A stretch of DNA of 37,564 nucleotides from an uncultured Alistipes sp. GTDB taxonomy: Bacteria; Bacteroidota; Bacteroidia; Bacteroidales; Rikenellaceae. Below the pieces are notes generated by a model. That model did not search any database. It was given only the letters and a program-made list of their open reading frames with translations, and was not told where the DNA came from. The stretch lies in assembly GCA_904502075.1 (NCBI GenBank), contig CAJGDL010000001.1:1-37564 (forward strand). The letters run 5' to 3'. The position numbers and the translations under genes were made by a program. How positions within the stretch are numbered: the first letter of the stretch is position 1; the number at the start of each line of letters is the position of its first letter. This document shows positions 5,526 to 23,963 of the stretch, in pieces.

Positions 5526-5565
5526 AGAATGGGGTGGTGCAAGGCATCACCCCATTCTGTTTTTG
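5526..5565 (+). terminator. Intrinsic terminator of rpmH
   Basis: Stem AGAATGGGGTGGTGC/GCATCACCCCATTCT followed by GTTTTTG. Confidence 0.85.
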
Positions 5566-5568
5566 ATT

Positions 5569-5672
5569 TTATAGGGCATATTTCACCTTGCCTTGCGCGC
5601 CCCGGATGGGTTGTACTTGAGGTACTACCCATCCGGGACTTGCTGCGTTAAGTCGAAATCTGCTCCTTATAA
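5569..5672 (+). repeat. GTAC-apex palindromic element, copy 1 (subfamily B-like)
   Basis: Apex CCCGGATGGG-TT-GTAC-TTGAG-GTAC-TA-CCCATCCGGG. Outer arms TTATAGGGCATATTTC / GAAATCTGCTCCTTATAA. Confidence 0.8.
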
Positions 5673-8087: not shown

Positions 8088-8342
8088 CCCCCTCTATTGC
8101 ATGGTAAAGATGGGATACTAAGCGAGGAAATTCCGCGCCGACATGAAATTGGGGCGGATGGGTAGTACTTTCGTACGTCCCATTCACCCCAAGGATTGAA
8201 ATGCGAAATTTTCCCCCTCTATTGCATGGTAAAGATGGGATACTAAGCGAGGATATTCCGCGCCGACATGAAATTGGGGCGGATGGGCTGTACTTTGCGT
8301 ACTGCCCATTCGCCCCAATGATTGAGGTGCGGAATTTACCGC

Positions 8343-8358
<16 letters not shown>
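8088..8358 (+). repeat. Tandem pair of GTAC-apex palindromic elements, copies 2 and 3 (subfamily B, period 125 bp)
   Basis: Units 8088-8212 and 8213-8338. Apices ATGGG-TA-GTAC-TTTC-GTAC-GT-CCCAT and ATGGG-CT-GTAC-TTTGC-GTAC-TG-CCCAT. The copy 3 stem spans 8231-8358 and reaches into the PFOR CDS. Confidence 0.92.
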
Positions 8359-14855: not shown

Positions 14856-14969
14856 AAGGCTGCAGATGCAACTATCGTGCAGTGAGCCCCGGATGGGGCA
14901 TACTTAGCGTATGTTCCATTCGGGGCTCGCAAGGGATAGGCAGCAGGTGCGGCCTTATCACAACAAATT
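14843..14969 (+). repeat. GTAC-apex palindromic element, copy 4 (subfamily A, MITE-like), abutting the fabH stop codon
   Basis: Imperfect terminal inverted repeats AATTTGTTGTCAGAAGGCTGCAGATGC / GCAGGTGCGGCCTTATCACAACAAATT. Apex GAGCCCCGGATGGGGCATAC-TTAGC-GTATGTTCCATTCGGGGCTC. 113/115 nt identical to 23849-23963 (inverted). Confidence 0.93.
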
Positions 14970-17207: not shown

Positions 17208-17365
17208 TTTCTATTTAGTTTTTAGTTTAGTATATTTTCGTTTTCTCGGCTCCGAGCCCTCTTCCACTCCTCTTGGTCGCCTCGGTTTGTTGGGGTAATA
17301 GGAGCCCCGGGGTGCTAATCCTTAACCTAAACGACGATCGGGATAGAAAATTGCCCTTCGCCTTC

Positions 17366-17932
17366 TTATTTTTCTCCTTCCATCTGCGCCTTCAGGGCTG
17401 CCAACTTGGCCTTGGCATCCTCCGAGAGGGTCGAAGGCTCCTCCTCGGCCTCGATCTCGGCCTCCATGCGATCAAACTCCTCGGCCGTGATCATCTGAAA
17501 ACGCTTCAGCATCTCGGGGTTGCACTCCCCCTCGGGGTGAACACGCTGCAGGGGCAACGAGAGGATGATGCTCTCATAGATATAGGCGGCCAAATCGACC
17601 ATATCCTCCGAGGGGTGGAGCCACAGCACCTCGCCGTCGTACTCCCCGGGCTCGTCCGAGAACTTCACCACCAGATTGCCCTCATAGGCGATCGGCATCT
17701 CGCAATCTTCCAGACAGCGATCACACATCACCTCCACCTTGCCGGCAATCTCCACCTGCATATCGAGCATCGTCTCCAGACGGCGCAACTCCACGCGCAC
17801 ATCGCATGCGCCGTGCTCGATCTCCGGACACTCAAAGGCCTCAAAAAGCGAATCATCCACCTTAAAATCATAGGTATAGACCCCCGCTTTCAGCCCTTTA
17901 AACGGTATCAAAAACTCTTTTTCCACGTTCAT
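17366..17932 (-). CDS. yceD: DUF177/YceD family protein
   Basis: CDRCL motif and YESIILSLP. Conserved position upstream of rpmF. Confidence 0.88.
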   Translation of the reverse strand: MNVEKEFLIPFKGLKAGVYTYDFKVDDSLFEAFECPEIEHGACDVRVELRRLETMLDMQVEIAGKVEVMCDRCLEDCEMPIAYEGNLVVKFSDEPGEYDGEVLWLHPSEDMVDLAAYIYESIILSLPLQRVHPEGECNPEMLKRFQMITAEEFDRMEAEIEAEEEPSTLSEDAKAKLAALKAQMEGEK

Positions 17933-17950
17933 TTATACGCAGTTAGTGCG

Positions 17951-17958
17951 CAAAGGTA
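17951..17958 (-). promoter_or_regulatory. -7 box of the yceD-rpmF-plsX-fabH operon
   Basis: TACCTTTG on the minus strand, 18 nt upstream of the ATG. Confidence 0.65.
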
Positions 17959-18101
17959 CGAAAAATTCGATTATTCGCAAAAGATTTTTCCTTTTTCGTG
18001 CGATTTTTGCCCGAAAACAAACTCTTTTTGCCGAAAATTTGGAAATTCTACCACAAAATAACTATCTTCGCCATAGAAACCACGAAAGAGAAGACCGGGC
18101 C

Positions 18102-18545
18102 ATGAAAAAAAGTGCAACCTATCAGATCGAACTCCACAGCAACCACCCCGAATGGTGGCGCTTCAATGTGGTGATGACCGCCCGCGGATGGGATTCGACG
18201 GGCGAACCGGCCGGATTCTTCGCCACCTCCGATCAGATCGCCCCGATCGATGGAGAGCTCCACCCCAAGCCCGTTGATTCTCCCGACGAGCGCACCACAT
18301 GCCTCGTCTGCGGCCCCTGCCACAGCTTCGAGCTCTACCTCTATGTGCTCCCCCACCGCCTGCCCGAGGAGAACAGCCTGGAGCACACCCCTTCGTTCGA
18401 GGTTGAGTTGCGCATCTCGGCAGGGAAGACCCGCCTACAGACCCAAAGGTGTCGGTCAACCCCTGGGGTGGAACCACCCTACACCTCCGCTGGCCGGAAA
18501 AGTAGATTCCCGATTTTCGCCATGTTGTTGTGTGGCCTTATCTGA
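18102..18545 (+). CDS. Hypothetical protein; probable -1 frameshift near 18446 (likely original stop at 18503-18505)
   Basis: Codons are host-like from MKKSATY up to about 18445. After that, host-like codons continue in the -1 frame (VSVNPWGGTTLHLRWPEK*). Confidence 0.6.
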   Translation: MKKSATYQIELHSNHPEWWRFNVVMTARGWDSTGEPAGFFATSDQIAPIDGELHPKPVDSPDERTTCLVCGPCHSFELYLYVLPHRLPEENSLEHTPSFEVELRISAGKTRLQTQRCRSTPGVEPPYTSAGRKSRFPIFAMLLCGLI

Positions 18546-18566
18546 ACCGAATAAAAATATAGAATA

Positions 18567-18872
18567 ATGGAAAAGACGAGTTGGAAAGTATGTAACATCA
18601 ACGGCTGGGTCACGGCCTGCGACCCCGGGCGACTCACTTCGACCCCCTACCACAAGAGCTACCGCCGCGAAGAACTCTCCCGCGGGATGAACCTCACGGC
18701 CTACTGCGAAGACCTGCCCGATGTGAAGGTACGAGAGATCGGCCCCGATTTTCTGACGGTCGCCTTCTCGGGCCGACAGCACAAGATCCCCACCGGCGGC
18801 CATATTGACACCCCCCGCAAGGGGCTCAGCTATGCCTACTCTGAGGCCACGATCTACCTCAAGGCCGAGTAA
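18567..18872 (+). CDS. Hypothetical protein (101 aa)
   Basis: A-rich leader before the ATG and GC3-rich host-like codons. No recognisable family. Confidence 0.7.
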   Translation: MEKTSWKVCNINGWVTACDPGRLTSTPYHKSYRREELSRGMNLTAYCEDLPDVKVREIGPDFLTVAFSGRQHKIPTGGHIDTPRKGLSYAYSEATIYLKAE

Positions 18873-19008
18873 CTCCGCCTCCGTGACTGCCAAATCGCCT
18901 GTCGCCTGCCGCTCTTTCGGCCATCCGAACGGCAGCCACTATCCCAAAAGGGCGTTCGGCTCTTCGGTTTGGCCAAATTTGCATAAAATCAAATCCCGTG
19001 GCATACGA

Positions 19009-19023
19009 TGGCACGGGATTTGT
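19009..19023 (+). promoter_or_regulatory. Candidate sigma54 (RpoN) -24/-12 promoter
   Basis: TGGCACG-GGAT-TTGT versus consensus TGGCACG-N4-TTGC, with correct GG-N10 spacing. One mismatch at -12. Confidence 0.6.
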
Positions 19024-19034
19024 TCGTTAAAGAG

Positions 19035-19147
19035 TCAGCTGCGGCAGAACCGCAGTGAGGTTTCTTCATTTATTTAAGGTTGGGTTAGTAGTTAGGGAGA
19101 GTAATCTCCCGAGGTAGGCGGCAATCGTGAGATTCCCGCCTATTTTT
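19035..19147 (+). ncRNA. Candidate trans-acting small RNA (about 113 nt)
   Basis: Hairpin CTGCGG/CCGCAG, about 40 nt of unpaired U-rich sequence, hairpin GGGAGA-GTAA-TCTCCC, and terminator TAGGCGGCAATC-GTGA-GATTCCCGCCTA-TTTTT. Lies directly behind the sigma54-like promoter and contains no + strand ATG. Confidence 0.65.
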
Positions 19148-19232
19148 GTGCCAACGAAGATTGCCCCGGATAGGATGTACATGGCGTACTTCCCATTCGG
19201 GGCAAGCAAGGCGGTGCAAAATTTACCGCTTA
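19141..19232 (+). repeat. GTAC-apex palindromic element, copy 5 (subfamily B), 9 nt from the purB stop
   Basis: Apex TTGCCCCGGATAGG-AT-GTAC-ATGGC-GTAC-TT-CCCATTCGGGGCAA. The right end GTGCAAAATTTACCGCTTA matches GTGCGGAATTTACCGCTTA at 8327-8345. Confidence 0.85.
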
Positions 19233-19241
19233 AAATCAAAA

Positions 19242-20588
19242 TTAAAAGATGCCGGTGTAGGTAGAGGGCGACAACGCACGCAACTCCTGCTTTACCTCCT
19301 CGCTCACATTCAGCTCCTCGACAAAGGCGGCGATCGACTCGGCGGTGATGTGGGTGTTGGTGCGGGTGAGGGCCTTCAGTGCCTCGTAGGGCTTCGGGTA
19401 GCCCTCGCGGCGCAAGATGGTCTGGATACCCTCGGCCACCACGGCCCAATTGTTCTCCAGATCGCGGGCCAGGGCGGGCTCATTGAGGAGCACCTTGCCA
19501 AGACCCTTCATCAGCGACTGCACGCCGATCAGGGTGTGGGCCACGGGAACACCCACATTGCGCAGCACGGTCGAGTCCGTGAGGTCGCGCTGCAGACGCG
19601 AGATGGGGAGTTTGGCGGCCAGGTGCTCGTAGAGGGCGTTGGCCACGCCAAAGTTACCCTCGGCATTCTCGAAGTCGATGGGGTTCACCTTGTGGGGCAT
19701 GGCACTCGAACCCACCTCACCGGCCTTGATGCGCTGCTTGAAGTACTCCATCGAGATGTAGGTCCACATATCACGGCAGAGGTCGATCAGGATGGTGTCG
19801 ATACGCTTCAGGGCATCGAAGATGGCGGCCAGATTGTCGTAGTGCTCGATCTGGGTCGTATACTGCGAACGGTCGAGCCCCAGGGTGTTGTTCACGAAAT
19901 CGTTGGCAAAGGCGGCCCAATCAATGGCCGGATAGGCGGCATGGTGGGCGTTGAAGTTACCCGTGGCACCGCCGAACTTGGCCGGCACGGGAATGGCACG
20001 CAACTGCGCGTACTGCTTCTCGAGACGCTCGACAAAGACACGGAACTCCTTGCCAAGATGCGTGGGCGAGGCGGGCTGTCCGTGGGTGCGGGCCAACATC
20101 GGGATCTCCTTCCACTCGTCGGCGAAGCCCTTCAGTCGGTCGATAAGCTCCTCCACCGAGGGGTATAAAACCTCCTCGAGACCCTCCTTCATCGAGAGAG
20201 GAATCGAGGTGTTGTTGATATCCTGCGACGTAAGACCAAAGTGGACAAACTCCTTGCAGGCCTCCATACCGAGCTGATCCATCTTCTCCTTGAGCAGATA
20301 CTCAATGGCCTTCACATCGTGGTTCGTCACCGACTCGATCTCCTTGACGCGCTCGGCATCGGCGATCGAGAAGTTGCGATAGAGGTCGCGCAGAGCCTCC
20401 AATTTTTGGAGCTCCACCCCCTGAAGTTGCGGAAGGGGAAGGTTGCACAGGGCCACAAAATACTCCACCTCCACACGGATGCGGTAGCGGATCAGGGCGG
20501 CTTCGGAGAAATACTCTCCCAGCTTGTCGGTCTTCGAGCGATAGCGGCCGTCTACGGGCGAGATCGCAGTTAGGGCTGTCAATGTCAT
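19242..20588 (-). CDS. purB: Adenylosuccinate lyase
   Basis: Motifs ISPVDGRY, TNHDVKA, HFGLTSQD, ARTHGQPA and signature SSAMPHKVNPIDFEN. Confidence 0.97.
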   Translation of the reverse strand: MTLTALTAISPVDGRYRSKTDKLGEYFSEAALIRYRIRVEVEYFVALCNLPLPQLQGVELQKLEALRDLYRNFSIADAERVKEIESVTNHDVKAIEYLLKEKMDQLGMEACKEFVHFGLTSQDINNTSIPLSMKEGLEEVLYPSVEELIDRLKGFADEWKEIPMLARTHGQPASPTHLGKEFRVFVERLEKQYAQLRAIPVPAKFGGATGNFNAHHAAYPAIDWAAFANDFVNNTLGLDRSQYTTQIEHYDNLAAIFDALKRIDTILIDLCRDMWTYISMEYFKQRIKAGEVGSSAMPHKVNPIDFENAEGNFGVANALYEHLAAKLPISRLQRDLTDSTVLRNVGVPVAHTLIGVQSLMKGLGKVLLNEPALARDLENNWAVVAEGIQTILRREGYPKPYEALKALTRTNTHITAESIAAFVEELNVSEEVKQELRALSPSTYTGIF

Positions 20589-23848: not shown

Positions 23849-23963
23849 TGTTGTGATAAGGCCGCACCTGCTGCCTATCCCTTGCGAGCCCCGAATGGAA
23901 CATACGCCAAGTATGCCCCATCCGGGGCTCACTGCACGATAGTTACATCTGCAGCCTTCTGAC
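23849..23963 (-). repeat. GTAC-apex palindromic element, copy 6 (subfamily A), 5 nt after the gap stop
   Basis: Reverse complement of 14851-14965 with 2 mismatches. Confidence 0.95.

Follow-up and report, generated by a model that had tools for sequence, protein, structure and literature searches.

The window analysed here is a stretch of 37,564 nucleotides from an uncultured Alistipes species, part of a metagenome-assembled genome of 1.55 Mb that is 78% complete. A gap of 369 nt separates an open reading frame on the + strand (18567-18872, no Pfam match) from purB, the adenylosuccinate lyase gene (19242-20588, - strand; Pfam Lyase_1 and ASL_C). The unit of interest lies in this gap, and the convergent purB is outside it. 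Upstream, four overlapping or abutting frames of 262, 199, 105, and 101 amino acids occupy 17273-18872 (+). None of them has a Pfam match, and they may be a single novel gene or a frame-shifted gene.

The unit is read on the + strand. It presents a -24/-12 promoter of the σ54 type, TGGCAC-GGGAT-TTGT (19009-19023), with TGGCAC at 19009-19014, the GG at 19010-11, and TTGT at 19020-23. The predicted sRNA, of about 112-114 nt, follows at 19034-19147, where the covariance model R1 matches with 122 bits (E 2e-21). It consists of a genus-specific 5' hairpin of 7 bp (19038-19056), a stretch from 19058 to about 19094 that is unpaired in the centroid fold, a second hairpin, GGGAGA-GTAA-TCTCCC (19095-19110), and a terminator (19115-19147). 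The terminator hairpin (19115-19142) has an outer stem of 7 bp, a C/C mismatch, an inner stem of 4 bp, and a GNRA-like loop (GTGA), and it is followed by T5 at 19143-19147. We divide the unpaired stretch (the seed) into two modules. Module R1 (19058-19078) ends in GGTTTCTTCATTTATTTAAG. Module R2 (19079-19091) reads GTTGGGTTAGTAG in the window and TTTGGGTTAGTAG in all relatives. The original prediction, made from the letters alone, had placed the promoter, the 5' hairpin, the unpaired stretch, the second hairpin, and the terminator here, and all of them are in the sequence at those places. It had also proposed an RNA of about 113 nt starting near 19035, which agrees with the model match. Judging by the -24/-12 spacing, transcription would start at about 19035.

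A perfect 11-bp inverted repeat (CAAATCCCGTG ... CACGGGATTTG) spans 18991-19021. Its right arm contains the -24 element, so the repeat includes a mirrored half-promoter that points the opposite way. This repeat is present only in the window and in its closest relative, G008 (loci L001 and L002). At the other end, the T-run of the sRNA adjoins a separate element (approximately 19140-19245), which is one member of a palindromic repeat family with a unit length of about 105 nt. The palindromic repeat has 45 blastn matches in the 1.55 Mb genome, with further copies in the window at 5561-5637, 8280-8345, 14886-14934, and 23880-23928. Its inner stem covaries among copies (GGGCC/GGCCC vs CCCCG/CGGGG), and contigs of two RNA libraries cover it.

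The folding of the + strand at 18975-19150 has a z value of -5.3, and none of 200 shuffles equals it. We aligned the RNA of 25 genus copies (alignment A1) and tested 18 pairs, which belong to the two modelled helices (seven in the 5' hairpin and 11 in the terminator). Both helices covary. In A1, 98.2% of the cells pair, and 14 of the 18 pairs have changed on both sides. None of 500 shuffles reaches these pairing and compensatory values, and the slid controls pair at 31-50%. The terminator has 100% of its cells paired, with both-side changes in 10 of 11 pairs. Likewise, 95% of the cells are paired in the 5' hairpin, with double changes in 4 of 7 pairs. The second hairpin was not alignable by MAFFT, so the copies were folded one at a time. 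Two hairpins are present 3' of the seed in 63 of 63 copies folded singly, and their stem sequences are diverse. Outside the genus, the 5' part of the sRNA differs in length and sequence.

In the unpaired stretch, positions 19058, 19060-78, and 19080-90 are invariant across the 25 copies of A1. At position 19079 the window has G, and the other genus copies have T (24/24). In the 40 family matches of at least 59 bits, the stretch is kept, with no more than a few point substitutions or the insertion of one base.

At the DNA level, 23 of 24 genomes of the same genus gave a match at E ≤1e-10, and the remaining one reached only E 0.05. The top match among 16 other families of the order had an E of 0.017. 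The covariance model R1 describes the RNA alone, with the promoter excluded. It matches 121 of the 151 genomes of Rikenellaceae (75 of the 91 that are high-quality), and these represent 30 of 31 genera. Among Bacteroidales that are not Rikenellaceae, it matches 2 of 149 genomes, weakly both times. The housekeeping -7 box of Bacteroidetes is TAnnTTTG, and one of these two outside matches has a box of the housekeeping type upstream. Locus L258 (genome G259, another family of the order) gives a weak match (E 2e-4) whose terminator is similar and whose seed is degenerate, with a box of the TAnnTTTG type upstream; this may be a distant relative outside Rikenellaceae.

When a species-level genome collection was searched for exact copies of the core, at least 120 stretches came up. 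Among the 80 records listed, 79 have Alistipes, Tidjanibacter, Rikenellaceae, or Bacteroidales in the title, and the remaining one carries the label Alphaproteobacteria. From the distribution of the model matches and of the core, we therefore assign the sRNA family to Rikenellaceae. Nothing in the unit matches Rfam 15 at the gathering score, the sole match in the window being a tRNA (2414-2485). With E up to 10, the local region gives one spurious miRNA match, which is outside the unit. The sRNA gene of Rikenellaceae is previously uncatalogued.

The genes around the unit are not conserved. Over 35 loci, the flanking genes vary and include Fic, glycosyltransferase, NDK, GH2, deformylase, integrase, TnpB, and others. 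A conserved neighbourhood with purB, one of the initial suggestions, was not found: among these loci, purB lies beside the sRNA in the window only. In the relatives, the sRNA gene adjoins integrase, TnpB-like, GmrSD/HNH, TIR, and Fic genes at loci L005, L009, L012, L022, and L002. It is possible that the sRNA locus lies at the edge of variable or integrated islands.

It is hardly credible that the unit is a small protein gene, or a DNA element (the end of a mobile element, for example, or an attachment site), instead of an RNA regulator. A frame of 20 codons (GTG at 19055, +) and another of 26 codons (-) do cross the stretch, and integrase, TnpB, and defence genes adjoin the unit in some relatives. 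Nevertheless, the start codons and frames are lost outside the genus, and indels downstream of the stretch have lengths that are not divisible by three. The invariance is at the nucleotide level, with no third-position change. Moreover, the hairpins covary, and a genome carries merely 1-4 copies, often in tandem. We rejected the small-ORF and mobile-element readings on these grounds.

For the promoter, we scored the motif TGGCAC-N5-TTGC over 10 positions (with GG at -24, GC at -12, and a fixed distance between them). The window promoter has 9 of the 10 consensus positions, the mismatch being the last base of its -12 element (TTGT where the consensus has TTGC). Within the genus, a score of at least 8/10, with a constant spacing to the RNA, is reached by 24 of 25 copies. 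When 26 copies are aligned, the upstream sequence is unrelated, and conservation starts exactly at the -24 element. Since model R1 was built without the promoter, the sequence upstream of its matches is an independent test. The examined loci contain 60 model matches, of which two were left out (a partial one of 33.7 bits and one at E 0.2). The best upstream motif in the remaining 58 family copies scores 10/10 in eight, 9/10 in 22, and 8/10 in nine. Hence, 30 copies have at least 9/10 and 39 have at least 8/10, compared with 0 and 1 in the reverse-strand control. Of the 40 copies with 59 bits or more, 36 have a motif of at least 8/10, and in the other four, the 150-200 nt or so that lie upstream contain no good σ54 motif. 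Promoter and seed are 17 to about 165 nt apart in the family copies. With a weight matrix made from the copies of 23 other genomes, the window site ranks third in the 1.55 Mb genome, where 101 sites score 12 bits or more. The promoter and the seed, whose conservation in relatives had been set as a check at the beginning, are both conserved.

We also searched for a conserved upstream activator site and found none that was convincing; no shared k-mer emerged. TGTTCY is present in 10 of 43 upstream regions, clustered 50-75 nt upstream, and is absent from the window copy.

A very unlikely alternative is that the -24/-12 match is incidental, and the RNA comes from another promoter or is processed from the 3' end of the transcript of the upstream gene. 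The imperfect -12 of the window agrees with it. So does the position of the -24 element within an arm of the inverted repeat, which could be the terminator of the upstream gene, and the housekeeping-type box of the low-scoring paralogs. However, the motif keeps its fixed spacing in 24 of 25 genus copies though the sequence farther upstream is unconserved, and it recurs in family copies that were detected without it. The upstream genes, in addition, vary by genome, and the gene is linked to rpoN. We favour transcription from the σ54-type promoter, and these motifs suggest that the sRNA would depend on σ54 in vivo.

The genome does contain rpoN, as a σ54-driven sRNA would require and as the original prediction had demanded. 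The gene is complete (472 aa) and has the AID, CBD, and DBD domains. In the family, rpoN is present in 147 of 151 genomes. Loss of rpoN was considered for genera with weak or absent sRNA matches and was ruled out, the gene being kept in 14/14 and 14/15 genomes. The source genome has one clear activator of 404 aa (Sigma54_activat and HTH_8; contig C95, locus L189:829-2043, - strand). Its AAA+ domain starts at residue 15, without an N-terminal sensor or receiver domain, and lptE is adjacent. Complete relatives carry 2-6 activators each.

The best sRNA match and rpoN share a contig in 45 genomes, and we compared their coordinates by hand. In 35 of the 45, from seven genera, they are at most 20 kb apart, and in seven genomes the distance is 0.8-1.0 kb. 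In the remaining 10, it is 38-279 kb; these include all six same-contig cases of the window's genus. The genomes are related, and therefore these counts are not independent events. In one locus examined fully, rpoN is followed by a 214-aa ORF, a terminator, two σ54-like boxes, and then the sRNA. Comparison among genomes shows the gene, its structure, its promoter motif, and its linkage to rpoN.

To our knowledge, Bacteroidota have neither σ32 nor Hfq. In the source genome, σ54 motifs lie upstream of several chaperone genes: htpG (10/10, 59 nt from the start codon), groES (9/10, 76 nt), and clpB (9/10, 45 nt). The dnaK and grpE genes have a weaker form, TGGTAT-N5-TTGA (7/10). We looked for a σ54 motif upstream of lon in this genome and found none. 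A motif of at least 9/10 within 200 nt upstream is present in only 12 of 1327 predicted genes. The top-scoring σ54 site of the genome lies upstream of an ECF sigma factor gene. The sites near htpG, groES, clpB, dnaK, grpE, and the ECF gene are at C3:23184, C43:12069, C26:2349, C108:4111, C94:2256, and C118:353. In Flavobacterium psychrophilum, the mapped σ54 promoters include those of GroES/EL, Lon, DnaK, GrpE-DnaJ, HtpG, Skp, and ClpB, according to the accessible part of PMC9723704. The motifs suggest that σ54 runs the heat-shock regulon in Rikenellaceae, as in Flavobacterium. By analogy, the sRNA would probably be co-induced with the chaperone genes under proteotoxic or envelope stress.

A further σ54-like site of 18.7 bits was seen on contig C15 of the same genome (C15:131-300). 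It is followed by about 100 nt with GGTTGGGTTAAGG and no convincing ORF. This may be a second σ54-driven non-coding RNA.

Sequenced RNA libraries were also consulted. In four runs, from at least three studies, a fraction of 0.05-0.07 of the sampled words was present. Contigs of relatives in RNA libraries cover 19049-19147, with T at 19079; they extend past both ends and may be DNA. Neither ends nor strand are visible in these contigs, and for this reason we do not take them as evidence of expression.

Taken as a whole, the comparison confirms in the genomes a real, conserved, and structured sRNA gene with a σ54-type promoter; the family is new, though its kind is known. Such an independent unit on the + strand, equipped with a promoter of this type and a terminator, had been proposed at the outset, and its conservation in relatives supports the proposal.

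The wider family is less uniform than the genus. The deepest-conserved piece is R2: its exact 13-mer is present in 131 of 151 family genomes, and the reversed control is scattered. One genus has the exact R2 13-mer in 14/14 genomes and the full model R1 in 2/14. Module R1 is lost or altered in most of the 18 low-scoring paralogs. On the other hand, most of the weak paralogs keep TTTGGGTTAGTAG despite other 5' parts, hairpins, and promoters. In seven of the 18 weak matches, TACCTTTG lies 12-69 nt upstream, presumably a form of the housekeeping -7 box TAnnTTTG. These seven carry this type of box instead, so the σ54 control is not universal in the wider family. On this evidence, the unit looks modular. 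R2 and the hairpins look like a shared scaffold, and R1 together with the σ54 promoter would mark the main member.

The edge of contig C50 of the same genome (C50:1-80) contains a sequence that can pair with 21 seed positions in a row if G-U pairs are included. No gene starts there. The sequence resembles a diverged copy of the seed in antisense, which could be an opposite-strand paralog or a decoy.

We consider it probable that 19034-19147 (+) encodes a trans-acting sRNA, with its own σ54 promoter and an intrinsic terminator, that pairs with start regions. Action in trans is proposed because the sRNA is independent of the neighbouring genes. Under proteotoxic or envelope stress, an enhancer-binding activator would turn on the promoter, probably jointly with the chaperone promoters of the σ54 type. 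The RNA would fold into the 5' hairpin, a single-stranded stretch of 33-34 nt, the second hairpin, and the terminator. The single-stranded stretch would be the working part, and it looks bipartite. The original prediction had compared it with the antisense of a translation start. This resemblance stands for R1 (UUUCUUCAUUUAUUUAAG), whose complement is an A-rich leader plus AUGAAGAAA. R2 (UUUGGGUUAGUAG) is the part common to paralogs with other 5' parts. Most likely, the stretch would pair with a limited number of mRNAs at their translation starts and block initiation there. We infer both the stress induction and the base pairing.

A global masking of MKK-type start codons, as first proposed, was not borne out. 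Tested against 1384 predicted start regions, the seed is no more complementary than 60 shuffled seeds are. Between 22 and 55% of the 60 mononucleotide shuffles match the real seed in start-region complementarity, and the reversed seed does likewise. In five complete genomes, the halves of the anti-seed show no excess over the reversed control, and the source genome has no long complement of the seed. When duplex energies were calculated for the 1384 start regions, the top matches were mostly GC-rich and loop-ridden, and their proteins (Pfam) had no common theme. Feedback pairing with the start regions of rpoN, the activator, and the chaperones is within background. Some R2-like sequences are located 6-15 nt before a start codon; these are anecdotal, and the shuffle control is negative. 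The gene calls in the target scans were approximate and no accessibility model was used, so the scans amount to an absence of support and not to a refutation.

Individual targets were considered and discarded. The best ungapped complement outside the sRNA itself, C50:39, is not a gene start. The best single candidate, C139 (an exported protein of 176 aa), was dropped as a core target because only 4 of 31 genus genomes have it. A recurrent 18-mer lies opposite a gene whose product starts like ribosomal protein L11 (judged by eye), and consequently has the same sense as the sRNA and is no target.

The main rival, which we regard as rather unlikely, is that the σ54-driven RNA binds a protein instead of mRNAs. 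The protein could be of the RRM type (a homologue of RbpB, for example) or a ribosomal component, and the invariant stretch, R2 above all, would be its docking site. The 33 invariant bases exceed what a seed typically needs, and the persistence of R2 in most paralogs that differ in 5' parts, hairpins, and promoters would fit a docking site. The failure to find a complementary target or an enrichment in start regions points the same way. Besides, FopS and GibS of Bacteroides are bound by RbpB in their 5' portion (PMC11697453, as far as its accessible text goes). Nevertheless, the sRNA has no repeated binding motif of the sponge type, and chaperone binding is compatible with mRNA pairing. Invariant stretches of about 30 nt are also present in multi-target sRNAs such as Qrr. 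Pairing with start regions is still the reading that we prefer.

A broader proposal is possible, and we offer it tentatively. The sRNA could be the σ54-wired head of a modular superfamily of Rikenellaceae, acting as the repressor arm of a σ54 stress response and carrying a module for chaperone docking. The modules may be a variable 5' seed, the invariant UUUGGGUUAGUAG, and the two hairpins, with UUUGGGUUAGUAG docking an RNA chaperone. The response itself may be the σ54 heat-shock and envelope-stress response of Bacteroidota, of which the sRNA would be the post-transcriptional arm.

Knowledge of RNA regulation in gut Bacteroidota is almost confined to Bacteroides. In our searches of the literature outside subscription journals, we met with no sRNA of Alistipes or Rikenellaceae, and with no characterised σ54-dependent sRNA in Bacteroidota. 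Likewise, a 2026 review of commensal sRNAs mentions neither RpoN nor Alistipes nor Rikenellaceae. The family described here provides an experimental handle, being conserved, recognisable, promoter-defined, and often located beside rpoN. It gives a route to the role of σ54 in abundant gut bacteria, and to whether their stress response has an RNA arm. The invariant module of 13-33 nt could serve as a probe for the missing RNA chaperone or for the targets.

Two of the nearest known systems are those with which the original prediction had suggested a link: GibS of Bacteroides and a σ54-dependent sRNA of Flavobacterium. The first link was not supported: no Rfam family matches the RNA, and the promoters of GibS and FopS are of other types (PMC11697453, accessible part). 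According to the same text, these sRNAs are found in the same order of bacteria and are multi-copy, and in each a terminator comes after a single-stranded seed. They act as repressors that pair with the translation starts of their targets (susC, BT_0771), and FopS is possibly induced by membrane stress. In contrast, their promoters are those of the housekeeping σABfr or of the motif PM2, not σ54 (PMC11697453, same portion). They are from Bacteroidaceae, not Rikenellaceae, and no Rfam family, theirs included if Rfam holds it, matches the RNA of the window. The second link stood in part. Sigma-54-dependent sRNAs of F. psychrophilum exist (Rfp1, Rfp36, and Rfp45), but they are uncharacterised in the available text of PMC9723704 and, by eye, unlike the RNA of the window. 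They share no seed or architecture with it in this comparison, which was by eye only. Two of the three are antisense to coding genes (PMC9723704, supplement file 9), and the available portion of that paper reports no family-wide conservation for them.

In enterobacteria, the stress sigma factor σE also drives the sRNAs MicA, RybB, and MicL, which form a repressor arm on mRNAs of exported proteins. FoxI and FoxJ of Fusobacterium, named in PMC13750123, are of the same concept. The likeness of these systems to our proposal is in the concept: a stress sigma factor activates protective genes together with an sRNA that acts as a repressor arm. They differ in the sigma factor and in sequence, and the repressor arm of the window RNA is a conjecture at this stage.

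The Qrr1-5 sRNAs of Vibrio are driven by σ54 and LuxO. As in the present case, they are of about 100 nt, have a σ54 promoter, and are present in one to several copies per genome. They also share the layout in which an unpaired, invariant stretch of about 30 nt precedes hairpins and a terminator, and one copy adjoins a gene of the σ54 machinery. Conversely, there is no relation in sequence or in Rfam, the phylum is another, and the neighbour here is rpoN, not an activator. If the broader proposal is true, the superfamily of Rikenellaceae would be a functional counterpart of σE with MicA, RybB, and MicL, or of LuxO and σ54 with Qrr.
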